From NCBI GenBank assembly GCA_041662745.1, contig JBAZRV010000003.1, forward strand, positions 60,001 through 92,000: a DNA stretch of 32,000 nt. The letters are read 5' to 3'. The translations under genes were made by a program, and so were the position numbers. Shown in pieces: positions 4,969 to 29,946 of this stretch. The DNA comes from Patescibacteria group bacterium. GTDB lineage: Bacteria; Patescibacteriota; Patescibacteriia; 2-01-FULL-39-33. How positions within the stretch are numbered: the first letter of the stretch is position 1; each line of letters begins with the position of its first letter. The notes under the pieces were generated by a model, which worked only from the letters and a program-made list of their open reading frames with translations, searched no databases and was not told where the DNA came from.

Positions 4969-5277
4969 ATGCTTGTCACATCAAAAGACCTATTCTGGGT
5001 CGTGTTATCGTTTGTTATTCTCTTTGGCGGTATTTGCACCAGCTTCGCTATTTTTTACTTCGCCATGATTCTACGCGACGGCTGGTACATCACCAAGGCC
5101 ATCAGGCGCAAGGTGGAAGCGGTAGAAAAAGTCATGACCGCTTTCAAGTCTAAAGTGGAAAACACCGCCAGCTATGTGCCGCCGTTAATTGACGGCGTGT
5201 CCAAATTGGTTGAAGCCATAGCCGAAAAGAAAAGATCTTCGGCCGCCAAAACCGGCAAAAAATCAAAAAGAAAGTAA
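4969..5277 (+). CDS. Hypothetical small membrane-anchored protein with a Lys-rich C-terminus
   Basis: 102 aa with one N-terminal hydrophobic helix pair (FWVVLSFVILFGGICTSFAIFYFAMIL), a helical region and a KKRSSAAKTGKKSKRK tail. Confidence 0.6.
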   Translation: MLVTSKDLFWVVLSFVILFGGICTSFAIFYFAMILRDGWYITKAIRRKVEAVEKVMTAFKSKVENTASYVPPLIDGVSKLVEAIAEKKRSSAAKTGKKSKRK

Positions 5278-5288
5278 AACATTACAAT

Positions 5289-5519
5289 ATGCTGTCAACA
5301 ATCGCTTTGATGCCGATTTTCGGCTATCCGGCCATCATGTATGGCGGAATTATTACTTTCATTCTTTTCCTCCTTGTTGCTTTCATGGGTTATCGAATAA
5401 ATAAAGGAAAATGCCGTTTACCTAATCCAATTAAATGGCATCAGACTATAGCGCTTCTGGCGTTAATTCTGGCCGTAATCCACGGCATCCTGGGGTTATC
5501 TATCATGGTAGGATTCTAA
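5289..5519 (+). CDS. Hypothetical small membrane protein (2-3 TM)
   Basis: 76 aa, mostly hydrophobic. A terminator follows directly. Confidence 0.6.
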   Translation: MLSTIALMPIFGYPAIMYGGIITFILFLLVAFMGYRINKGKCRLPNPIKWHQTIALLALILAVIHGILGLSIMVGF

Positions 5520-5529
5520 AGATAAAAAT

Positions 5530-5556
5530 AGCCGGCCTTTGCCGGTTATTTTTTTG
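5530..5556 (+). terminator. Rho-independent terminator
   Basis: Stem agccggc (5530-5536) / gccggtt (5541-5547), loop cttt, then a T-rich run. Confidence 0.7.
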
Positions 5557-5646
5557 TTATTGACTTTTTATTGATTTTTTAGTATCATAAGCAATCGTAC
5601 CTTTAAATCGTTTATTCATTAAGACTATTATAAAGGAGAATTAATA

Positions 5647-6189
5647 ATGAAGATTATCAGATGGTATTCCGGCAATACCAGATTTGTCTTAGTGATTGGT
5701 TTTTTGGCTTTTAAGTTTGCCAAAATCAATCTGTTTATGGCTTTAAAATGCGAATTCAGGCAATTATTTACGAACAGTCATAATGTGAGACGCTTAGTGA
5801 AGAAATATGGTTATGTATGCCCGGTATCGCCACTTTATTGGCTGCTCCGCGGAATCACAGCCAATTGGCTGGAATGGCGTTATTATCGGCGCACGCGCTT
5901 ACCGATTCTTGCTCCAACCTATTTGTCGCTTGGCTTAGTAAATATCCAGGCGGCCGGCGTTTATCCGCAAGTAACCGAAAAATATTTTAGAAGCCAAATC
6001 AGCGCCATCATCGGCCATGATGAGAATAATGATGAAGATATCCATGCCGATCCACACACTCTTCGTCAAATGGAAAACTACATCGTCTTTAACGGCAGAC
6101 TGAAGATCATTGATTATGGATCACCAAAATCCTGGACGTTTTTGGAGAAATGGGGAAAAAAGATATTTGATGAATTTATCGCTCTGTAA
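5647..6189 (+). CDS. Hypothetical protein with protein-kinase-like (Bud32/RIO/Kdo-type) motif remnants
   Basis: 180 aa with SD aaaggaga just upstream. IHADPHTLRQMENYIVFNGRLKIIDYG resembles an HxD...N catalytic loop plus a DFG-like IDYG. LAFKFAKI could carry the beta3 Lys and NWLEWRYY the alphaC Glu. Confidence 0.35.
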   Translation: MKIIRWYSGNTRFVLVIGFLAFKFAKINLFMALKCEFRQLFTNSHNVRRLVKKYGYVCPVSPLYWLLRGITANWLEWRYYRRTRLPILAPTYLSLGLVNIQAAGVYPQVTEKYFRSQISAIIGHDENNDEDIHADPHTLRQMENYIVFNGRLKIIDYGSPKSWTFLEKWGKKIFDEFIAL

Positions 6190-6200
6190 TCCAGCCACTT

Positions 6201-6230
6201 AAGCCACGCTTAGTCGTGGCTTTTATATTT
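6201..6230 (+). terminator. Rho-independent terminator
   Basis: Stem aagccacg (6201-6208) / cgtggctt (6215-6222), 6-nt loop, then ttttatattt. Confidence 0.75.
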
Positions 6231-6266
6231 GCTATTTTTTGCTGATTTTCGTATAATATAAGCATT

Positions 6267-6593
6267 ATGAAGATGGAAAACGAGCCGGTAAATTCGGTTT
6301 TAAACGAGCCGGGATTTCAGGAATTCATCAGGAATCGCAAGATTCAAGAAGCGGACTTTCCGCTTTTGGAGGAACTGGCGGAAATTCCCAAAGATTTGCT
6401 ATTTGTTGAATTGCATAATTTTTTTAATTCTAATCGAGAAAGAAGCGCCGAGGAATTAGAGCGCCAGCTTTTGACTATGGAAGACGGTGGCAAGAAGCGT
6501 TATTTTGAGTTACTGTTGCGTTTTACCCGGGCTTATGACTGGACAGCTTGTTATAATTTAGAAAGAGTTTTAGAAAGAAGATATGAAAATTAA
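6267..6593 (+). CDS. Hypothetical acidic helical protein
   Basis: 108-aa ORF whose 3' end overlaps the lysS start by 11 nt. A tataat box at 6252-6257 lies only 9 nt before the ATG. No recognisable family. Confidence 0.5.
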   Translation: MKMENEPVNSVLNEPGFQEFIRNRKIQEADFPLLEELAEIPKDLLFVELHNFFNSNRERSAEELERQLLTMEDGGKKRYFELLLRFTRAYDWTACYNLERVLERRYEN

Positions 6594-8088
6594 AAATATG
6601 CCCCAACAATCAGAAGCTAATCCTTTGGATGAGAAAGTAATGCGTTTAAAACGTCTTGCTGACATTAAGTCGTCCGGTGTCAATCCGTATCCGGAAAAAT
6701 TTGATAAATTACAAAGCCTGGCCGAGGCCAAAGCCGGCAAAGAGGGGACTAAGGTCAAGACAGCCGGCCGAATTATGACTATCAGAAGCATGGGCAAGAT
6801 TGCTTTTTGCCATTTGTCCGATTGGAGCGGCAAATGCCAGGCCGTATTGAACATTACCGAAATCGGAGAGGAAAAATTGCAATGGTTCAAGGACTACGTG
6901 GATAGGGGTGATTTTATCGGCGTTTCCGGCGAAATTTTTACTACTAAGGCCGGAGAGATTTCCATTTTAGTCAAAGAATATGAATTCTTGGGTAAGGCGC
7001 TTTTGCCGTTGCCGGAAAAGTTCCATGGCCTGAAGGATACGGACACGATTTATCGCCAGAGATACTTGGATTTGATCGTCAATAATGAGGCCAAAAAACG
7101 TTTCCAATTCCGTTCGGATTTTATCCGCGCTATTCGCGAGTTTTATTGGCAGGAAGGGTTTATGGAAGTGGAAACTCCAACTTTGTTGCATCAAGCGACC
7201 GGAGCGACGGCTACTCCCTATGATACGCACAATAATGCCCTGGATGTGGATTTGGTTTTGCGGATTTCCCACGAATTACCGCTGAAGGAGTTGATTGTCG
7301 GCGGCATGGAAAAGATTTTTGAGTTGGGCAAAGCTTTCCGCAACGAGGGAGTTGACCCCTCGCATCTGCCCGAGCATACGCTTTTGGAACATTATGCGGC
7401 TTATTGGAATTTTGAAGATAATATCAAATATACCGAAAAGATGTTTGATCATTTGTTTGATAAGTTAAAATTGCAGAAAGTTTTGGAGGTAGAGGATCGC
7501 GAAGGCCAAAAACAAAAAGTTGATTTTACCACGCCTTGGCAGCGGGTTGATTTTATTGAGATGATCAAAGTTGATACCGGCATTGATATTACTGAATTTG
7601 ACGAGGCCGCAGAATTATTAAAAGAAATCAAAAAGAAGAAAATAGAATTTGAAGATATGGATGGGATGAGTTTGACGGGATTAGTGGATAATTTATATAA
7701 GAAAGTCAGTCGCTCAAAAATCGTCGGCCCGGTGATTCTTTATCATTACCCCAAATATATGCAGCCGTTGGCGCGCGTTAATGATAAAGACAAGAATATT
7801 GTTGATCAGTTCCAACTCATAGTCAACGGCTGGGAAATGCTCAAGGCCTATTCCGAATTGGTTGATCCCACAGATCAGAAAGAACGTTTTGAAGCGCAAA
7901 GAAAGGCCAAAATCAAAGGCGAAGGCGAAGTGATGGAGGGTGATGATGAGTTTATTACCGCTCTGGAGCATGGCGCGCCGCCGATCTCCGGCTGGGGCAT
8001 GGGCATTGACCGCACCGTGGCCATTTTGACCGGCCAAAGCAATTTGCGGGATGTAGTGCTGTTTCCGTTATTAAGACCGAAGGAATAA
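6583..8088 (+). CDS. lysS: Lysine--tRNA ligase, class II
   Basis: 501 aa. FRNEGVDPSHLPEHTLLEHY (motif 2), GWGMGIDRTVAIL (motif 3) and an N-terminal OB anticodon-binding region. An alternative start at 6598 is possible. Confidence 0.96.
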   Translation: MKIKNMPQQSEANPLDEKVMRLKRLADIKSSGVNPYPEKFDKLQSLAEAKAGKEGTKVKTAGRIMTIRSMGKIAFCHLSDWSGKCQAVLNITEIGEEKLQWFKDYVDRGDFIGVSGEIFTTKAGEISILVKEYEFLGKALLPLPEKFHGLKDTDTIYRQRYLDLIVNNEAKKRFQFRSDFIRAIREFYWQEGFMEVETPTLLHQATGATATPYDTHNNALDVDLVLRISHELPLKELIVGGMEKIFELGKAFRNEGVDPSHLPEHTLLEHYAAYWNFEDNIKYTEKMFDHLFDKLKLQKVLEVEDREGQKQKVDFTTPWQRVDFIEMIKVDTGIDITEFDEAAELLKEIKKKKIEFEDMDGMSLTGLVDNLYKKVSRSKIVGPVILYHYPKYMQPLARVNDKDKNIVDQFQLIVNGWEMLKAYSELVDPTDQKERFEAQRKAKIKGEGEVMEGDDEFITALEHGAPPISGWGMGIDRTVAILTGQSNLRDVVLFPLLRPKE

Positions 8089-8091
8089 GAT

Positions 8092-8802
8092 ATGAAAAAC
8101 AAATATTTGTTAATCGCTTTAATTATTTGCTCTGTTGCTTTAACCGGTTGCGGGATCCAGAAGGATGAAGTCAAAGAGGCCGTGCCGGCCGGGAGCGTTG
8201 CGGTTATCGGTCGGACAGTAACTGAATCGCCGGCCAGTCCGGCTGATGCCAGTTCCAGCCAAGCAACCTCATCCGCCACAATTATTAATAAAACACTTAC
8301 TATGCCGGAAATTATTATTGATCAAAGCAAAACTTATACCGCCGTTTTGCACACCGACCGGGGCGATATTACCGTCGCTTTAAACGCCAAAGCCACGCCG
8401 ATCACCGTTAATAACTTTGTTTATTTGGCTAAGAATAATTTTTATGATAACACGATCTTTCATCGCGTGATTAAGGACTTCATGATCCAGGGCGGCGATC
8501 CCAAAGGTGATGGCACCGGCGGGCCGGGCTACAAGTTTGCCGATGAAAAATTTACCGGCGAATATGCCCGCGGCACGCTGGCGATGGCTAACTCCGGACC
8601 CAACACCAATGGTTCGCAATTCTTCATTATGCACGCCGATGTGCCCTTGCAGAAAGATTATGTCATTTTCGGCCGCGTTACCAAGGGATTGGACGTGGTG
8701 GATAAAATTGCCACCGCAGCGACGACTCTGGGCGCTGATGGCGCCATGTCCAAGCCGGTTACTCCGGTTAAGGTTAATTCCATAGAAATAATTGAGAAAT
8801 AA
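8092..8802 (+). CDS. Cyclophilin-type peptidyl-prolyl cis-trans isomerase, lipoprotein
   Basis: 236 aa. Lipobox ALTGC, then a Ser/Ala-rich linker. FHRVIKDFMIQGGDP and GTLAMANSGPNTNGSQFFI are cyclophilin signatures. Confidence 0.93.
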   Translation: MKNKYLLIALIICSVALTGCGIQKDEVKEAVPAGSVAVIGRTVTESPASPADASSSQATSSATIINKTLTMPEIIIDQSKTYTAVLHTDRGDITVALNAKATPITVNNFVYLAKNNFYDNTIFHRVIKDFMIQGGDPKGDGTGGPGYKFADEKFTGEYARGTLAMANSGPNTNGSQFFIMHADVPLQKDYVIFGRVTKGLDVVDKIATAATTLGADGAMSKPVTPVKVNSIEIIEK

Positions 8803-12122: not shown

Positions 12123-13091
12123 ATGAAAAAGTCATCAGAACCGTTAATTAAACACATTAATGACTTTTTGGATTACGTGGAGGTGGAAAAGGGTCTTTCC
12201 CCCGTTTCTGCCAAGAATTACCATAACTTTCTCAAAGTGTTTATTGTTTGGCTTAAGGATAACAATTTGGCTCAGATTAAGCCTCACGAGTTGGATAGCA
12301 AGCATATCTGGGACTTCCGTCTCTATTTATCCCATAAAAAGGACCAGCGGGGTCAATATTTAAAAAAGACCACCCAGAGCTATTATTTGAGAGCTTTGAG
12401 GCAATTGTTGAATTATTTTGCTGAGAAGGATATCAGTTCCCTGCCCGCAGAAAAAATCAAATTGCCGAAACTGACTGATAAAGACAGGCAAATAAAATTT
12501 TTGTCTTACAGCCAAGTTGAACATTTATTGTCAATGCCGGACTTGAATGACGTTTCCGGATTGCGTGATCGGGTTATCTTGGAAGTTCTCTTTTCTACCG
12601 GCATGCGCGTGGCTGAATTAACTTCGCTTAACTTGAAACAGTTTGATTTGAGAATGATTTTAAATAATAAGATTAAGGATTTGGAATTATCAATAGCCGG
12701 CAAGGGCGGTAAGGTCAGGACGATTTATTTTTCACCCCGAGCCATTAAATACTTGTCGTTATATTTGAAAACACGCCAGGAGGACATGCTCGCTCCCCTG
12801 TTTATCAATTATAGCCGTAATACCGGCGATAAAGGCGAACGTCGTCTGACTCCCCGAGCAATTGAAAATTTGGTTAAAAAGTATACGGTCATGGCCGGCT
12901 TGCCGATTGATGCCACGCCCCACACCCTTAGGCACAGTTATGCTACCGATTTATTGGAACAAGGGGCTGATTTGAGATCGGTTCAGGAGTTGCTGGGCCA
13001 TAGCAATGTGGCCACCACCCAGATTTATACCCACGTTACTAATCCTCGGTTAAGGGATGTTTATAAAAAATTCCATAGTGGCAGTAAATAA
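12123..13091 (+). CDS. Tyrosine recombinase, XerC/XerD family
   Basis: 322 aa. N-terminal SAM-like core-binding region (FLDYVEVEKGLSPVSAKNY), GMRVAEL (Arg I), HTLRHSYATDLL and LLGHSNVATTQIYTHV (catalytic Tyr). Confidence 0.93.
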   Translation: MKKSSEPLIKHINDFLDYVEVEKGLSPVSAKNYHNFLKVFIVWLKDNNLAQIKPHELDSKHIWDFRLYLSHKKDQRGQYLKKTTQSYYLRALRQLLNYFAEKDISSLPAEKIKLPKLTDKDRQIKFLSYSQVEHLLSMPDLNDVSGLRDRVILEVLFSTGMRVAELTSLNLKQFDLRMILNNKIKDLELSIAGKGGKVRTIYFSPRAIKYLSLYLKTRQEDMLAPLFINYSRNTGDKGERRLTPRAIENLVKKYTVMAGLPIDATPHTLRHSYATDLLEQGADLRSVQELLGHSNVATTQIYTHVTNPRLRDVYKKFHSGSK

Positions 13092-17698: not shown

Positions 17699-18445
17699 TT
17701 ATTGCCGGTTTAAGTAATCAACGGTCATTTTTATCACGCTGGAGCCGTCGGTGGAAAAGCTGTCGGTTAAGGACATGGCGCCGTCAATGCCGTTTTTGAA
17801 AAAGCTCAAGTCTATTTCCGTTGATTGGATTAATTCTTCAACCGTAAAACCCTTTGTCTCTAATTGTTTTTTATAATACTCGTATAAATCTTCTTTGGTT
17901 TTGTTGATATTGTTCCAAGACAGGGAGACGGTTTTGATTTCTTTCCTTCCATCGCCGGCAGTTGTTTTAATGTCTTTGACCGTAGGATTCTCCGAGATGT
18001 TTTCCGGTGTTTTGTTTTGGGCGATTATTTGGGTTTTTAGGTCGGGGTATAAGCGGTCGGCGATTATTTGTACGGCCCAGTCAGGCAAGGCCGCTGACAA
18101 TTGCTCAATCTTTTTTTTGCTTTCCGGCGATAAAACCTTGATGCTGGCTTGGTTGAGTTGGTAAATGATTAAATCTTTGGGGAAGTCTTCGGGCAGTTCC
18201 TCCACGGTTTTAATAATCGGGCCGGAAATATAAACGGTTAAAAAAATAGCGCAAGCCAAGACGGCTACGATCATTAAAAAGAAACAGCTGAAAAATTTCA
18301 AACAGGAATGATGTCCGGGTGGCCGGTGGCGGCTGTAATGCCGCGGTTCTTCCGGCTCCACCTCTATTCCCCTGTTTTCCGCTTCGGCTAAAACGTCTTT
18401 GGCCGCTTCAATCTCATCCAACGTGATGTTTTTGTCGCTTTCCAT
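17699..18445 (-). CDS. Hypothetical single-pass membrane protein
   Basis: 248 aa. Acidic N-terminus, one TM (FFSCFFLMIVAVLACAIFLTVYI), then an extracytoplasmic domain. It lies 4 nt upstream of the TagA-like gene, probably in the same operon with gltX. Confidence 0.7.
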   Translation of the reverse strand: MESDKNITLDEIEAAKDVLAEAENRGIEVEPEEPRHYSRHRPPGHHSCLKFFSCFFLMIVAVLACAIFLTVYISGPIIKTVEELPEDFPKDLIIYQLNQASIKVLSPESKKKIEQLSAALPDWAVQIIADRLYPDLKTQIIAQNKTPENISENPTVKDIKTTAGDGRKEIKTVSLSWNNINKTKEDLYEYYKKQLETKGFTVEELIQSTEIDLSFFKNGIDGAMSLTDSFSTDGSSVIKMTVDYLNRQ

Positions 18446-18554: not shown

Positions 18555-19973
18555 ATGAAGTTGAAAAAACTCTTTATTTTTGCATTCTGTTTTGTCTTTA
18601 CCGCTTTAATCGCCGTTAACGCTCGGGCGGCGGATTTTACCGCCGATTATTTGATTTCCGACGTTGAAATGAATGACTATAGCGCTATGGATTTAAGCGA
18701 CATTCAGCGTTTTTTGGAAAAACGCGACGGCACTTTGGAGACTTATATTACCTTTGACAAGGAAGGCAATCCTAAGACGGCGGTTCAGACATTTTTTGAA
18801 ACTTCTCGTAATTGGCAGATCAATCCTAAATATCTGTTGGTTTTGGTGCAAAAAGAACAAAGCCTATTGGATGACCCCAATCCCTCGCAGAAACAATATG
18901 ACTGGGCGACCGGTTACGGGGTTTGCGATAGTTGCTCTATGGACGATCCTAATATTCAGCGTTTCAGGGGGTTCTATCGCCAAGTCAATTCCGCTGCCGC
19001 TCAGACGCGATATTACATGGACAACATTAAGGAATTTTCTTTTCAGCCGGGCAAAACCTATAACATTGACGGCCAGACCGTTACGATGAAAAACACAGCC
19101 ACTGCCGGCTTGTTCAACTATACCCCGCATATCCATGGAAATCAGCTGTTCTGGAATTTATGGAATAAATATTTTGGCAAATCTTGGCCGGACGGCAGTT
19201 TGTTGCAAGTTGAAGATGGCGGTCAGATATACTACATTGAAAACGGAGTTAAGCGTTTAATCGCCTCTAAGGCCGTGTTCGCTTCGCGTTTCAATAATAA
19301 TAGCATCCTGACGGTTAGTCAAAGCGATTTAGATACTTATGATGATGGCGCGCCGATTAAATATTTGAATTTTTCCATTTTGCAGAGCACGACTACCGGC
19401 GAGATGTATATGATCATTAATGATGTTAAACGTCGCATTGTCAGTGACGCTGTTTTTAAGAAATTAGGCTTTAGCGATGATGATTTGGCAAAGGTTATTG
19501 ATTCTGAGTTACAATTATATAAGGCTGGCCCGGATATTACCGAATATACTGTTTATCCGACCGGTATTTTGTTGCAGGACAGTAAAGCCAAAATCGCCGA
19601 CGCCGGCATATATTATGTCATCAGCGGTGAAAAAAAACCCGTATTAACCAAAGAAATAATGGCGGCTAATTTCCCCGGCATGACCGTCAAGAAAGTTCCT
19701 AGCGTAGAATTGGACAAGTATATGCCCGGCTCTAATGTAACTTTGCCCGACGGTTTATTGGTCAAGATAAATCCTAAAGCTCTAAAAGTCAAAACCAAGG
19801 AAGCGCTCGCCGCCGCCAGTACGGTCTATGTTATTTCTCATGGCAAGCGTTTGCCTATCATTTCTGGCGCAGTATTCAAACAAATGGGGTATAGCAGCAA
19901 GAACATCAAGATCATTTCCGAAGCCACTCTTAATGCCCATGATTTAGGCCCCTTCATTACCGGGCAACAGTAA
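18555..19973 (+). CDS. Hypothetical secreted protein
   Basis: 472 aa. Signal peptide MKLKKLFIFAFCFVFTALIAVNARA. An extended -10 tggtataat lies at 18515-18523. The function of the conserved-looking N-terminal block (INPKYLLVLVQKEQSLL...WATGYG) is not recognised. Confidence 0.8.
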   Translation: MKLKKLFIFAFCFVFTALIAVNARAADFTADYLISDVEMNDYSAMDLSDIQRFLEKRDGTLETYITFDKEGNPKTAVQTFFETSRNWQINPKYLLVLVQKEQSLLDDPNPSQKQYDWATGYGVCDSCSMDDPNIQRFRGFYRQVNSAAAQTRYYMDNIKEFSFQPGKTYNIDGQTVTMKNTATAGLFNYTPHIHGNQLFWNLWNKYFGKSWPDGSLLQVEDGGQIYYIENGVKRLIASKAVFASRFNNNSILTVSQSDLDTYDDGAPIKYLNFSILQSTTTGEMYMIINDVKRRIVSDAVFKKLGFSDDDLAKVIDSELQLYKAGPDITEYTVYPTGILLQDSKAKIADAGIYYVISGEKKPVLTKEIMAANFPGMTVKKVPSVELDKYMPGSNVTLPDGLLVKINPKALKVKTKEALAAASTVYVISHGKRLPIISGAVFKQMGYSSKNIKIISEATLNAHDLGPFITGQQ

Positions 19974-19983
19974 TCATAAATAT

Positions 19984-20775
19984 ATGTCACTCGTATTTGC
20001 AGCCATTACGCCACATCCGCCGATTTTAATACCGGCTATCGGCAAGGACAATATCAAACAAATTGAGAAAACAAAATCGGCCATGGAAAAGCTGGAAGAA
20101 GAGCTGTATTCGGCTAAACCTGATATTGTCATGATTATTTCGCCTCACGGCGAGATGAGCGCCGATTCTTTTACGGTAAACTTAAGCAACGATTATGAAG
20201 TTAATTTTGAGTCATTCGGAGATTTTACCACTAAATTGCAATTCAAGGGTGAGACCGTTTTAATGACTATGGGCAAAGAAAAGATTGCCGCTAAATCGCC
20301 TTTGAATATTATTTCTGAATCAGCGCTTGATCATGGAGCGGGCGTTCCCTTATTTTATCTGATGCGGCATCTGCCGCAGGTGCCGATTATTCCCTTATCG
20401 TTTTCTATGCTGGATAATCAGGCGCATGTGGAGTTCGGCAAGGGTCTGAAAGAGCTTATCTTAAATACCGATAAACGCGTGGCTGTTATTGCTTCTGGCG
20501 ATTTATCTCATTGTTTGACTAAAAACGCTCCCGTGCCCTATAACCCGGCCGGTAATGATTTTGATCAGACGCTAATTGAGTTGGTTAAGAAATGCGATAC
20601 GCAAGGCATCACTAACATTGATCATAAGTTAGTCAGTGATGCGGCGGAATGCGGTCTGCGTTCTATCTTGATATTATCCGGCATTATCAGCGATATGAAG
20701 TGTCAGCCGGAGGTTTTGAGTTATGAGGGTCCGTTCGGCGTGGGCTATCTGGTAGCCGAAGTAAAATTTGATTAG
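19984..20775 (+). CDS. LigB-type (class III extradiol dioxygenase subunit B-like / Memo superfamily) protein
   Basis: 263 aa. ITPHPPILIP, ISPHGE, LDHGAGVPLFYL and ASGDLSHCL match the metal-ligand blocks of the LigB/YgiD family. Confidence 0.8.
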   Translation: MSLVFAAITPHPPILIPAIGKDNIKQIEKTKSAMEKLEEELYSAKPDIVMIISPHGEMSADSFTVNLSNDYEVNFESFGDFTTKLQFKGETVLMTMGKEKIAAKSPLNIISESALDHGAGVPLFYLMRHLPQVPIIPLSFSMLDNQAHVEFGKGLKELILNTDKRVAVIASGDLSHCLTKNAPVPYNPAGNDFDQTLIELVKKCDTQGITNIDHKLVSDAAECGLRSILILSGIISDMKCQPEVLSYEGPFGVGYLVAEVKFD

Positions 20776-24850: not shown

Positions 24851-25156
24851 TTAAATTTTTTCAATCATGATTTCGGTGAAACATTGGCGATGGCCGAATT
24901 TCTTGCGGTATCTGGTTTTTCTCTTGTACTTAATGCCGGTAACCTTGTCAGCGCGGCCTTGGCCCAGGATTTTAGCCATAACTTTAGCGGCTAAGGTCGG
25001 TTCGCCCATCTCAACTTTTTCGCCATCGGCGACAAGCAGGGTTTCCAGTTCAATCTTGGATCCGTCGGCCTCCGCTAATTTTTCCACCTTAATTTTATCG
25101 TTTTCTTTAACCAGGTATTGTTTTCCACCGGTCTTAATAACAGCAATTTTTACCAT
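24851..25156 (-). CDS. rplU: 50S ribosomal protein L21
   Basis: 101 aa. MVKIAVIKTGGKQYLVKENDKIKVEKL is the canonical L21 N-terminus. Confidence 0.95.
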   Translation of the reverse strand: MVKIAVIKTGGKQYLVKENDKIKVEKLAEADGSKIELETLLVADGEKVEMGEPTLAAKVMAKILGQGRADKVTGIKYKRKTRYRKKFGHRQCFTEIMIEKI

Positions 25157-25184
25157 ATTTGTTTGTTTTGATATTTACTTAACT

Positions 25185-25213
25185 ATTTTAGCTCAATTGG
25201 CGTCTTTTGTCAA
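25185..25213 (-). promoter_or_regulatory. Sigma70-type promoter for rplU
   Basis: On the minus strand: ttgaca (25213-25208), 17-nt spacer, taaaat (25190-25185). Confidence 0.6.
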
Positions 25214-25231
25214 GGTGGTTGGCGGGAAGAT

Positions 25232-25272
25232 AAAAAAAGAGCGTTTTTTGTCCGAATTGGAGCAAAAAACGC
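25232..25272 (-). terminator. Rho-independent terminator after the radical SAM gene
   Basis: 10-bp stem gcgttttttg (25241-25250) / caaaaaacgc (25263-25272). The A7 run at 25232-25238 gives the U-run on the minus strand. Confidence 0.8.
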
Positions 25273-25282
25273 CCAAAATGTG

Positions 25283-26476
25283 CTAACGAACCATTGATAA
25301 TTTAACATCCGAACGAACGGTGTGGCGGTAGCTCACGCTATATCGTTTTCGCAAATACTCATCCAAAATATTGCAACATTCTTGGTAGTGCCTCTCCCAC
25401 TCCCTAATTTTTTGGGCGCTGAATTTTTCCGGATCTTTGCCTTCTCGCAAAGCTTTGGCCTTAAGCCGGGCAAGAGTCGGGCCGTAAGGCTTTAGGGGGC
25501 CGATATGGACGCGCAAAGCGAAGTTCTCAATATGTCTTTCAATCATCTCTAGCCATTTTTTCAAGCTGGCCGGATTCGGATTGTACATTTGCGGGAAAAT
25601 ATCCAGCCCTGCTTCCACTAATGTGCGCAGACAGAAAACCTGATCGGAAATAGTGGCGTTGGCTTGGACATTGTCTTGCAGATTGGCATTGTCCGTACCC
25701 TTAATGGCGGCTAAGACTTTAACCGGAAAAACTGCCAGATGACGGTAATAATCAATCGGCCACAAATGAGGCGTGGAGAGATTGGTGTCCACTTGTCCGA
25801 CCATATCCTCTCCCCGTTCTTCAATTCGGCGCCAGAGTTTGATAATCCAGTCCAGCACTACGGTCGGCTCGCCGCCGGAAACGCGCAGGACTTTAATATT
25901 CAGATCAATCCCGGTTTGTTTTTTGTAAATTTCCCGCACCTTATCCCGAGCCATTAAGAAGCTGTCAATAACATCGTCAACCTCAACCAGCCATTTATTT
26001 CCGGTTTGACGCAGGCCGTCATTGAGTTTGTTATCCACAAAACAGTAGAGACAACCGCCGTCGCAGGTTCCGGAATGGAAATTGCAGCCGGCGACCTGGA
26101 GGATAAATGGCGCATTATAATCTAAGGCGCGGGACAATTCATAGCCTGCGATATGCTTGTACCACAAGGCAAAATCAAATTCTTGCTGCTTGAGATAGTC
26201 TTCAATTACTCCCGGAGACATCTTGCCGATGTCAATGAAGTCCTTGCCGTAAGCCTTGGCCGCCAAGGGATCAACATCTTTGGCATTGAATTTGAACCGG
26301 AAAACGCGTCGGCCGTCCCGGTTAGGCATCAGGTCTATAACCTTGCTTGTGTCTTGGCCTTGCAGCGAATCGGAAAAATCCGCTACCAGTAGCCGTCCCC
26401 CCGGCGTGATTACGGTTTGGCGCAAGGCGGTGGCGCGATCTAATGGACTTTGGACATACGACGGATTTTTAGACAT
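25283..26476 (-). CDS. Radical SAM domain protein of unassigned subfamily
   Basis: 397 aa. It has CX3CX2C as C138-DGG-C142-LY-C145 (nt 26042-26065), preceded by an extra Cys in AGCNFHSGTC. VSGGEPT is the SAM-binding GGE motif. About 130 aa at the N-terminus and about 100 aa at the C-terminus are unrecognised. No SPASM-type C-terminal Cys cluster. Confidence 0.8.
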   Translation of the reverse strand: MSKNPSYVQSPLDRATALRQTVITPGGRLLVADFSDSLQGQDTSKVIDLMPNRDGRRVFRFKFNAKDVDPLAAKAYGKDFIDIGKMSPGVIEDYLKQQEFDFALWYKHIAGYELSRALDYNAPFILQVAGCNFHSGTCDGGCLYCFVDNKLNDGLRQTGNKWLVEVDDVIDSFLMARDKVREIYKKQTGIDLNIKVLRVSGGEPTVVLDWIIKLWRRIEERGEDMVGQVDTNLSTPHLWPIDYYRHLAVFPVKVLAAIKGTDNANLQDNVQANATISDQVFCLRTLVEAGLDIFPQMYNPNPASLKKWLEMIERHIENFALRVHIGPLKPYGPTLARLKAKALREGKDPEKFSAQKIREWERHYQECCNILDEYLRKRYSVSYRHTVRSDVKLSMVR

Positions 26477-26933
26477 AATGCTTTTCTCCCTCCTTTAAGA
26501 GTTTTGCGAATTCTTCAGCTAGGACTTGCAATTTTTGTTTGTCTTCCTCTGTCAGTCCGGCCAGAATCTGTTCTCCTCGGAAATGCAATTTTTGTAACAA
26601 AATGTAGGCTGATTTAGCGGCGATGTTGATTTCAGTTATCAATTCGGCAACTTCCATGCACCACAAAGCAGTACCTACTGAATCCTCATACCAATCGCCG
26701 GTATTTCCGCAATAACGGTAAAATCGGCAATCCCGGAAGAAAACAGCAAAAGCTTTCTGCTTGCTTAATTCTTTTAGGATATTGCATATCCTGCCTATGC
26801 GATTATCAATGATAATCTGACAATCGATTAGGCGGCTGATCAGTCCGGGTCCCGAGAGATGGAAAATTACGATGAGCAAATTTAGCATGTCAAGTTTTCC
26901 AGCCGGTGTTCGGTTGCGCGCTGTTGTCGGCAT
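26469..26933 (-). CDS. Hypothetical protein, translationally coupled partner of the radical SAM gene
   Basis: 154 aa. Strong SD gagggagg (26949-26942). Its stop overlaps the downstream ATG in ATGTCTAA (26469-26476). It looks helical, with 5 Cys including DCRFYRYCG. No family recognised. Confidence 0.7.
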   Translation of the reverse strand: MPTTARNRTPAGKLDMLNLLIVIFHLSGPGLISRLIDCQIIIDNRIGRICNILKELSKQKAFAVFFRDCRFYRYCGNTGDWYEDSVGTALWCMEVAELITEINIAAKSAYILLQKLHFRGEQILAGLTEEDKQKLQVLAEEFAKLLKEGEKHYV

Positions 26934-26990
26934 ATCTGTTACCTCCCTCGGTTATCGCTGGCTTATTAAGTTTTAATGTTCGGTTGAGTT

Positions 26991-27019
26991 ATCTTACTAT
27001 ATTGGGGGAGAAATGTCAA
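26991..27019 (-). promoter_or_regulatory. Sigma70-type promoter of the 154-aa / radical SAM operon
   Basis: On the minus strand: ttgaca (27019-27014), 17-nt spacer, taagat (26996-26991). Confidence 0.65.
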
Positions 27020-27020
27020 A

Positions 27021-27057
27021 TAAAAAATATCCTCGCAAACCTGCTTTGCGAGGATAT
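27021..27057 (-). terminator. Rho-independent terminator after secF
   Basis: 13-bp stem atatcctcgcaaa (27027-27039) / tttgcgaggatat (27045-27057), 5-nt loop. The A-run at 27022-27027 gives the U-run on the minus strand. Confidence 0.85.
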
Positions 27058-27068
27058 TGCCGTATGAA

Positions 27069-29828: not shown

Positions 29829-29946
29829 GTGTTTCTGTGGATAATAGTTAAAATGATGGATAAATCTTAACAAAATTGAGAAAAAAAGGCAAGAACGGCT
29901 AAGAACTCACCTTTTAAATCGCGGCATTAATCGGTTTATCGGTCGG

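Follow-up and report, generated by a model that had tools for sequence, protein, structure and literature searches.

On the minus strand of a 32,000-nt stretch of Patescibacteria group bacterium DNA (GenBank assembly GCA_041662745.1, contig JBAZRV010000003.1, positions 60,001 to 92,000; this whole stretch is the window below), an open reading frame (ORF) of 154 amino acids (aa; 26469-26933) overlaps one of 397 aa (25283-26476) that encodes a radical S-adenosylmethionine (SAM) enzyme; both were placed by the ORF listing and by reading of the sequence. The 397-aa protein, called rSAM here, belongs to a compact radical SAM family that is uncharacterised and lacks a curated model, a solved structure, a name or a paper. 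It was probably acquired by bacteria of the candidate phyla radiation (CPR) from archaea, and the 154-aa protein most likely joined it later as an accessory. On balance, the evidence favours reading the pair as an imported DPANN-type enzyme, whose substrate would be universal and anionic, together with that late accessory.

Family assignment and cluster loop

With Pfam PF04055, rSAM scored 28.6 bits, just under the gathering cutoff of 29.5, and many of its homologues carried a precomputed PF04055 match. The best NCBIfam match had an expect value (E) of 0.007 and the best PADLOC match (pVip) an E of 0.008; PHROGs returned no match, and when the profile of the 61 family sequences was run against PDB sequences, no match fell below E 0.2. 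No paper on the family was found in a literature search. The first-pass annotation of this DNA had fitted the protein to no characterised subfamily, and these profile searches agree with it. Among viruses, Foldseek against the BFVD structures gave generic radical SAM matches only, and a scan of viral contigs gave no relative of rSAM.

The AlphaFold2 (AF2) model built with the family alignment (predicted local distance difference test, pLDDT, 95; predicted template modelling score, pTM, 0.93) had an N-terminal alpha/beta domain at residues ~1-120, a (beta/alpha)6 core at ~124-345 and a long C-terminal helix at 349-379. Pyruvate formate-lyase activating enzyme (PflA; 3CB8/8FO0) was the top Foldseek match in the PDB (E ~5e-7; template modelling score, TM, 0.65 on PflA length; 16-17% identity), followed by OxsB, lysine 2,3-aminomutase, AprD4 and SkfB, with coverage of the core only in all of them. 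All PDB matches at E <= 0.001 (20/20) were radical SAM enzymes. The core is predicted to be a PflA-like six-stranded partial TIM barrel with N- and C-terminal domains specific to the family, and the three-Cys loop, the GGE motif and the six beta/alpha units of the radical SAM superfamily were all found.

The putative [4Fe-4S]-binding loop, C131-X10-C142-X2-C145 (26042-26086, minus strand), was delimited by alignment and contains a 7-residue insertion and C138. In an alignment of 61 core-subfamily homologues (mean column identity 51%), C131, C142 and C145 were Cys in 61/61 sequences, and C138 in 4/61. The predicted ligands of the cluster are C131, C142 and C145, and C138 appears to be a clade-specific extra; the triad proposed in the first-pass annotation (C-DGG-C-LY-C) had started from the wrong Cys, C138 instead of C131. 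Its GGEP motif was retained, with SGGEP (residues 200-204; 25865-25879, minus strand), the SAM-binding 'GGE' motif, invariant in the same alignment.

The CX10CX2C pattern, as C-x-F-[HYNF]-x7-C-x-[YHF]-C-F, was present in 118/120 close homologues. The canonical Q-x-x-G-C-N-x-x-C-W-Y-C-[FY]-V-D, with CX3CX2C spacing, was present in a sister subfamily and in distant relatives, and also in the close member P0129. Because these sequences keep the canonical spacing, CX10CX2C is read as the result of a 7-residue insertion (FHDGSxxGG / FHxGxxxGG) between Cys1 and Cys2 of an ancestral CNxxCWYC loop. Alignment to E. coli PflA with hhalign paired C131, C142 and C145 with C29, C33 and C36, with a 7-residue gap exactly at the insertion, and paired SGGEP with SGGEA and DTNLS with DTNG.

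C138 and C282 were common to the three genomes that bear the pair (the window, L001 and L012). C282 was absent from every other sequence compared, and C138 was only sporadic elsewhere (L025/P0057, P0050 and the L045 contig). The gain of both residues coincides with the appearance of the 154-aa partner, which itself contains Cys and His.

Distribution, partner and operon layout

A word-indexed search recovered 152 rSAM homologues, nearly all labelled as DPANN. Identity was 78-100% in three close bacterial relatives and then dropped to ~55%; beyond these relatives, the named sources were Woesearchaeota, Nanoarchaeota or 'archaeon'. Scanning 1.84 billion cluster representatives with a hidden Markov model (HMM) gave 161 matches at E <= 1e-3 (33 at <= 1e-30), and species-representative genomes held 36 rSAM loci, overwhelmingly in DPANN archaea. 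The core subfamily occurred in Woesearchaeota and Nanoarchaeia. The sister subfamily (110 proteins; Pacearchaeota, Aenigmatarchaeota and Nanoarchaeota) matched over nearly the full length and had the canonical CX3CX2C spacing, and more distant relatives (330-370 aa; 700-800 aa) matched over the core only and were likewise unannotated.

In a bootstrapped neighbour-joining tree of 35 sequences, rooted on a divergent Aenigmatarchaeota member, the three pair-bearing genomes formed a clade (100%) that joined L026 and L041 (97%), and this bacterial group was nested within archaeal sequences. L026 is truly bacterial, of a CPR-like lineage, and encodes a penicillin-binding protein transpeptidase, GreA, ScpA and DUF5671. 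The 'Gammaproteobacteria' label of L041 is probably a binning artefact, because a gyrB-rSAM-aminoacyl-tRNA synthetase synteny is common to L041 and L026. Since the bacterial copies fall into a single clade inside the archaeal part of the tree, rSAM was probably acquired once by CPR from archaea, after which it would have diverged in at least two CPR lineages. The guanine plus cytosine composition at the two-gene unit showed no anomaly, which fits an old transfer.

The 154-aa protein had no match in Pfam, NCBIfam, PADLOC or PHROGs, in agreement with the first-pass annotation, which had not recognised it, and a profile built from the partner alignment matched none of the PDB sequences. Its AF2 model was all-helical and of low confidence (pLDDT 48); the fold search with this model against the PDB gave only matches with E > 3, and the model was discarded as unreliable. 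Among the three related genomes, the ratio of nonsynonymous to synonymous substitution rates (dN/dS) was 0.23-0.25 for the 154-aa ORF vs 0.07-0.11 for rSAM. By its dN/dS, the 154-aa ORF is a real gene, under purifying selection and evolving faster than rSAM. The family is basic (isoelectric point, pI, ~8.8), with H25, C38, C50, C69 and H117 invariant, and the protein is rich in Cys and aromatic residues around DCRFYRYCG, the C75 of which was not conserved.

Homologues of the 154-aa protein numbered 4 among 5.8 billion proteins, and an independent pattern scan of metagenome contigs returned the same contigs only, with no additional homologue. Those on long contigs (n = 3) shared one synteny, gap-secD-secF-154-rSAM-rplU-GT2. 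By this census the 154-aa gene is a taxonomically restricted orphan, apparently confined to three or four closely related genomes. The first-pass annotation had taken recurrence of the pair in varied contexts as the observation that would support it; a single synteny in a narrow lineage, with 4 partner homologues, was found instead. Its idea of a stoichiometric complex or an enzyme-substrate pair lost ground as well, with ~150 close and ~110 sister-subfamily rSAM homologues lacking the partner, including the CPR lineage L026. In L026 and L041 the 154-aa gene was absent, and a divergent gyrB stood upstream of rSAM instead.

Other neighbours of rSAM were not recurrent either. In a census of 41 loci, with the rSAM gene called in 38, the commonest neighbour cluster, a Rad50-like AAA_23 ATPase, was present in only 5/38 loci, all of one sub-lineage. 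The 114 genes within +/-2 positions of rSAM matched 131 Pfam families in all, and no theme was enriched among them. Archaeal rSAM loci gave no trace of the 154-aa protein by tblastn or HMM; the 153-aa ORF located 6 nt upstream of rSAM in L029, considered as a partner homologue, was unrelated.

Two further features of the rSAM neighbourhoods were observed. In five Woesearchaeal loci (L010, L015, L016, L023 and L043), rSAM was followed on the same strand by the Rad50/SMC-like AAA_23 ATPase (~690-707 aa) and then by two paralogous proteins of 350-410 aa, the one representative of which that was scanned had no Pfam match; the ATPase and the paralogues appear to be a clade-specific conserved block. 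Small ORFs common to L026 and L038 proved to be a mobile MNT/HepT toxin-antitoxin pair. Three unrelated loci had such an MNT/HepT pair no more than a few kb from rSAM (L026, 7326-7974; L038, 1712-2523; L056, 845-1460), which is probably a coincidence of abundant mobile toxin-antitoxin modules.

The self-contained, coupled minus-strand unit described in the first-pass annotation was confirmed in all its parts (both ORFs, promoter, Shine-Dalgarno (SD) sequence, overlap and both terminators), with adjusted limits for the two hairpins. A sigma-70-type promoter, TTGACA-N17-TAAGAT (26991-27019, minus strand; 10/12 matches in a consensus scan), precedes the 154-aa gene, whose SD is GAGGGAGG (26942-26949, minus strand), with a core GGAGG invariant in three genomes. 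The two ORFs are joined by an 8-nt stop/start overlap, ATGTCTAA (26469-26476, minus strand), and an internal SD for the rSAM gene, AGGAGG (26489-26494, minus strand), lies 12 nt upstream of its ATG, within the end of the 154-aa ORF. The upstream boundary is the intrinsic terminator of secF, a stem followed by a U-run (27026-27058, minus strand). The terminator stood as annotated, and its stem measured 14 bp over 27058-27026 and not 13 bp over 27027-27057 (-20.2 kcal/mol; z = -6.1; 0/200 shuffles folded as well). Downstream, the rSAM-gene terminator (hairpin plus U-run, 25232-25274, minus strand) was likewise upheld, with the hairpin at 25274-25239 and not at 25241-25272 (-19.3 kcal/mol; z = -5.1; 0/200 shuffles). 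The separate rplU promoter of the first-pass annotation was found by consensus scan at 25213-25185 (TTGACA-N17-TAAAAT).

The signals were compared among the pair-bearing genomes (the window, L001/L002 and L003/L012), the coding sequences of which differ by a synonymous divergence (dS) of ~0.9. Both promoter hexamers of the two-gene unit were invariant in the window, L001 and L012, and hexamers, SD and leader taken together were near-invariant. The secF terminator stem was retained through compensatory changes in L001 and L012, and the stem of the rSAM-gene terminator showed compensatory changes in L001. The overlap (-8) was retained in 3/3 genomes, and the internal SD had a purine-rich equivalent in L001 and L012. 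Because the signals are conserved and the stems compensated at this dS, the anatomy is more than a chance pattern match. The overlap ATGTCTAA indicates probable translational coupling of the 154-aa and rSAM genes, and the conserved signals, read together, show an operon of a Buchananbacteria-like CPR bacterium that is predicted to be transcribed on its own, with translation of its two genes coupled. Promoters and 5' leaders were near-invariant in the three genomes both for the 154-aa-rSAM unit (26934-27019) and for rplU (25157-25213), at synonymous sites near saturation. Rfam gave 0 matches across the whole window, with no riboswitch or noncoding RNA to account for the conserved leader.

Substrate, partner role and rival explanations

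By analogy with established radical SAM chemistry, the reduced [4Fe-4S] cluster of rSAM would cleave SAM, held by SGGEP, to a 5'-deoxyadenosyl radical, and a substrate lodged between barrel and N-terminal domain would then lose a hydrogen to this radical. The substrate is most likely universal, present in bacteria and archaea, and anionic. Its presence in both domains is argued for because rSAM is solitary in archaea and crossed domains with no co-transferred neighbour, and its negative charge because many basic side chains are invariant (R60, K62, K66, R198, K253, K259, R337 and R388 in the 61-sequence alignment). As a guess, a conserved tRNA or rRNA of the translation machinery comes first, and a nucleotide or a phosphorylated metabolite second. 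The 154-aa gene would have arisen or been recruited only after the transfer; selection would keep it, and its product would be synthesised in step with rSAM. Rather than an ancestral subunit or a substrate of rSAM, this product is most likely a late accessory by which the imported enzyme is fitted to a bacterial host; substrate targeting, regulation and electron delivery may be among its roles.

Several points weigh against this reading of an imported enzyme with a late accessory. The rSAM family is mildly acidic (median pI 6.35 vs 8.2 for archaeal neighbour ORFs), which lends no support to nucleic-acid binding, although it does not exclude it, and no neighbour, fusion or curated family indicates the substrate, the assignment of which was inferred. 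The transfer was read from a neighbour-joining tree of 35 sequences with a divergent Aenigmatarchaeota root, and the labels of metagenome-assembled genomes are imperfect (L041 as Gammaproteobacteria; L045 as Saccharibacteria on a 1.8-kb contig). The accessory role is read from the absence of the 154-aa gene elsewhere, and remote homologues of this fast-evolving protein could escape the searches. An obligate complex is possible in this lineage, and both the tight coupling and the clade-only gain of C138 and C282 are compatible with a complex. A more specific version is offered tentatively, in which rSAM would catalyse an undescribed radical SAM reaction on a shared substrate (e.g., an unassigned modification of tRNA, rRNA or nucleotides in ultra-small episymbionts), and, after the transfer, a helical, Cys/His-containing 154-aa protein of de novo origin in one bacterial lineage would form a lineage-specific complex with it, with C138 and C282 gained, retargeting the enzyme or supplying electrons.

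An obligate two-subunit enzyme or an enzyme-scaffold pair, in which rSAM activity would depend on the 154-aa protein in stoichiometric amount, is unlikely. It would agree with the retention of the 8-nt overlap and internal SD in three genomes, with the purifying selection on the 154-aa protein, with its invariant H25, C38, C50, C69 and H117, which could bind a metal or a cluster, and with the gain of C138 and C282 in the rSAM of the pair-bearing clade. However, more than 95% of the rSAM family, including all archaeal members and L026/L041, was without the partner or any conserved neighbour, the pair occurred in a single synteny of one narrow lineage, and the AF2 model of the 154-aa protein (pLDDT 48) was unreliable. 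A DPANN counterpart of AmmeMemoRadiSam, with rSAM working with a Memo-family protein (and AMMECR1), would account for the position of sister-subfamily rSAM genes 78 nt downstream of a true Memo gene in the Pacearchaeota-type genomes L048/L049 and L054, where Memo scored 264 bits with TIGR04336 and stood in an operon-like block (CCA-adding enzyme, Memo, rSAM and DUF7768). It would also draw on the LigB/Memo-like gene of the window, 4.5 kb from rSAM, which scored 37.6 bits vs a TIGR04336 cutoff of 26, and on the known AmmeMemoRadiSam rSAM being PflA-like too. This explanation is nevertheless quite improbable: TIGR04337 (AmmeMemoSam_rS) was never matched by the window protein or 13 relatives in the NCBIfam scans, no Memo was present within +/-6 kb at ~35 Woesearchaeal loci or at five further loci of the sister subfamily, and the window Memo-like protein was chiefly LigB-like (131 bits), with six unrelated genes, spread over both strands, between it and rSAM.

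The remaining explanations are far less probable. A nucleotide-modifying antiviral enzyme of the viperin type, the defence role that the first-pass annotation had listed among its options, would be consistent with weak matches in the cluster region (NF038283, E 0.016; PADLOC pVip, E 0.008; relatives, ~1e-6 to 1e-7) and with invariant basic residues that could bind a triphosphate. Scores were only 14-30 bits (window protein, 14.4) vs a cutoff of 180, sequence conservation was high (mean column identity 51%), contexts were of housekeeping type and not variable defence islands, no viral or PHROG relatives were found, and the MNT/HepT pairs near three loci were ordinary toxin-antitoxin modules; with no meaningful PADLOC match and no defence-type neighbourhood, this option is very improbable. 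Even less credence is given to a PflA/NrdG-type activase, with pyruvate formate-lyase or an anaerobic ribonucleotide reductase as the glycyl-radical enzyme that it activates, although PflA was the best structural match and some members bear the Joint Genome Institute (JGI) label 'organic radical activating enzyme' or 'pyruvate-formate lyase-activating enzyme'. The PflA motif DGPGIR was absent, aligning to YNAPFI in rSAM (family consensus DYNxPFI), and ~190 extra residues are foreign to activases. No glycyl-radical enzyme (NrdD/PflB) was found in ~50 neighbourhoods or in the 32-kb window, and in L050, a DPANN genome, a separate canonical NrdD-NrdG-thioredoxin cluster lay 2 kb away from the rSAM gene of the sister subfamily. 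The NrdG2 score was 12.2 bits vs 131, PFLA was unreported for the window protein, and relatives reached at most 37 bits (TIGR02493, TIGR02495). Maturation of a ribosomally synthesised and post-translationally modified peptide (RiPP) or another protein, with the 154-aa protein as the rSAM substrate, is just as hard to credit as an activase. A small ORF directly upstream of rSAM, Cys- and aromatic-rich around DCRFYRYCG, has the classic RiPP layout, but a helical, basic protein of 154 aa is an atypical precursor, and C75 of that motif was not conserved. The enzyme lacked a SPASM/twitch auxiliary-cluster domain (no CX2CX5CX3C-type motif, no PF13186 match, a long helix at the C-terminus, and C368, in 50/61 sequences, as the sole further common Cys), neither protease nor transporter was nearby, and the rSAM family is older than the partner and strongly conserved in its absence.

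Surroundings and closest known systems

The genes of the window were ordinary CPR housekeeping content (the aminoacyl-tRNA synthetases PheRS, SerRS, GluRS and an Asp/Lys-type enzyme, def/fmt, secDF and GAPDH). The LigB/Memo-like gene (19984-20775, plus strand; LigB, 131 bits; TIGR04336, AmmeMemoSam_B, 37.6 bits) was syntenic in related genomes, and the Memo genes of the Pacearchaeota-type loci were at 3050-3922 in L048 and 3068-3922 in L054. A 472-aa ORF of the window (18555-19973, plus strand) had no Pfam or NCBIfam match and was kept beside the LigB/Memo-like gene in L003, and a 248-aa ORF (17699-18445, minus strand) had no Pfam match. A tyrosine recombinase (12123-13091, plus strand; Phage_integrase and N-terminal SAM-like domains) stood amid the housekeeping genes and is either XerC/D-like or a mobile-element remnant. 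A 139-aa ORF (24867-25286, plus strand), antisense to rplU and overlapping the rSAM stop codon, is almost certainly a spurious shadow ORF.

In the Buchananbacteria relative L003, an additional radical SAM/SPASM gene (456 aa) and a divergent 105-aa ORF were located between GAPDH and secD (702-2464), and these may be a RiPP-like cassette. The window was without this cassette, with GAPDH adjoining secD (29874-29946). Directly downstream of the sister-subfamily rSAM in L052, an intein that contains a LAGLIDADG homing endonuclease split the MCM helicase gene (5261-8635); the assembly is labelled 'Methanococcoides sp. SA1', and its 569-kb contig may be DPANN.

Uncharacterised radical SAM subfamilies are common. 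The rSAM family is a variant within a very large known superfamily, with a CX10CX2C loop and novel flanking domains. It is unnamed, compact and conserved, with the expanded loop and with N- and C-terminal domains of its own, and it is an apparent signature protein of several DPANN archaeal orders. Its single nested CPR clade would illustrate how genes pass between the two groups of ultra-small prokaryotes that depend on hosts, and transfer across domains would constrain the rSAM substrate, which must occur in both. The coupling of an orphan gene to an imported enzyme offers a natural experiment in how horizontally acquired enzymes are integrated into a new host. The 'two-component system' reading is at most partly supported.

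Among known systems, PflA (3CB8, 8FO0) was the closest in fold, with a six-stranded partial barrel and with cluster Cys, SGGE(P/A) and DTN(L/G) in alignment. It differs from rSAM in the position of the cluster motif (~residue 29 vs 131 in rSAM, which carries the 7-residue insertion), in the DGPGIR substrate-binding motif that rSAM is without, and in length, with ~120 extra N-terminal and ~50 extra C-terminal residues in rSAM; identity was 16-17%, and no glycyl-radical enzyme occurred near rSAM loci. Like the generic PF04055 architecture, rSAM has a cluster bound by three Cys, a GGE motif and a partial TIM barrel, but its score fell below the cutoff (28.6 vs 29.5 bits), its Cys spacing was non-canonical and no subfamily model covered it. 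AmmeMemoRadiSam rSAM (TIGR04337) resembles the family in that the sister subfamily adjoined true Memo (TIGR04336) in L048/L049 and L054, but TIGR04337 was not matched, and a link to Memo was missing in the core subfamily and in the majority of sister contexts.

QueE (7-carboxy-7-deazaguanine synthase) of Burkholderia multivorans has an expanded CX14CX2C cluster loop. QueE offers a precedent for an insertion between Cys1 and Cys2 that abolishes neither cluster nor SAM binding. It also belongs to COG0602 ('organic radical activating enzyme'), a label that JGI gives to some rSAM family members. The window protein had no QueE match, however, and its relatives matched at E 1e-3 to 1e-6 and at most 27 bits vs cutoffs of 206-260; size and flanking domains differ, and no QueC/QueD or other queuosine or archaeosine neighbours were seen.

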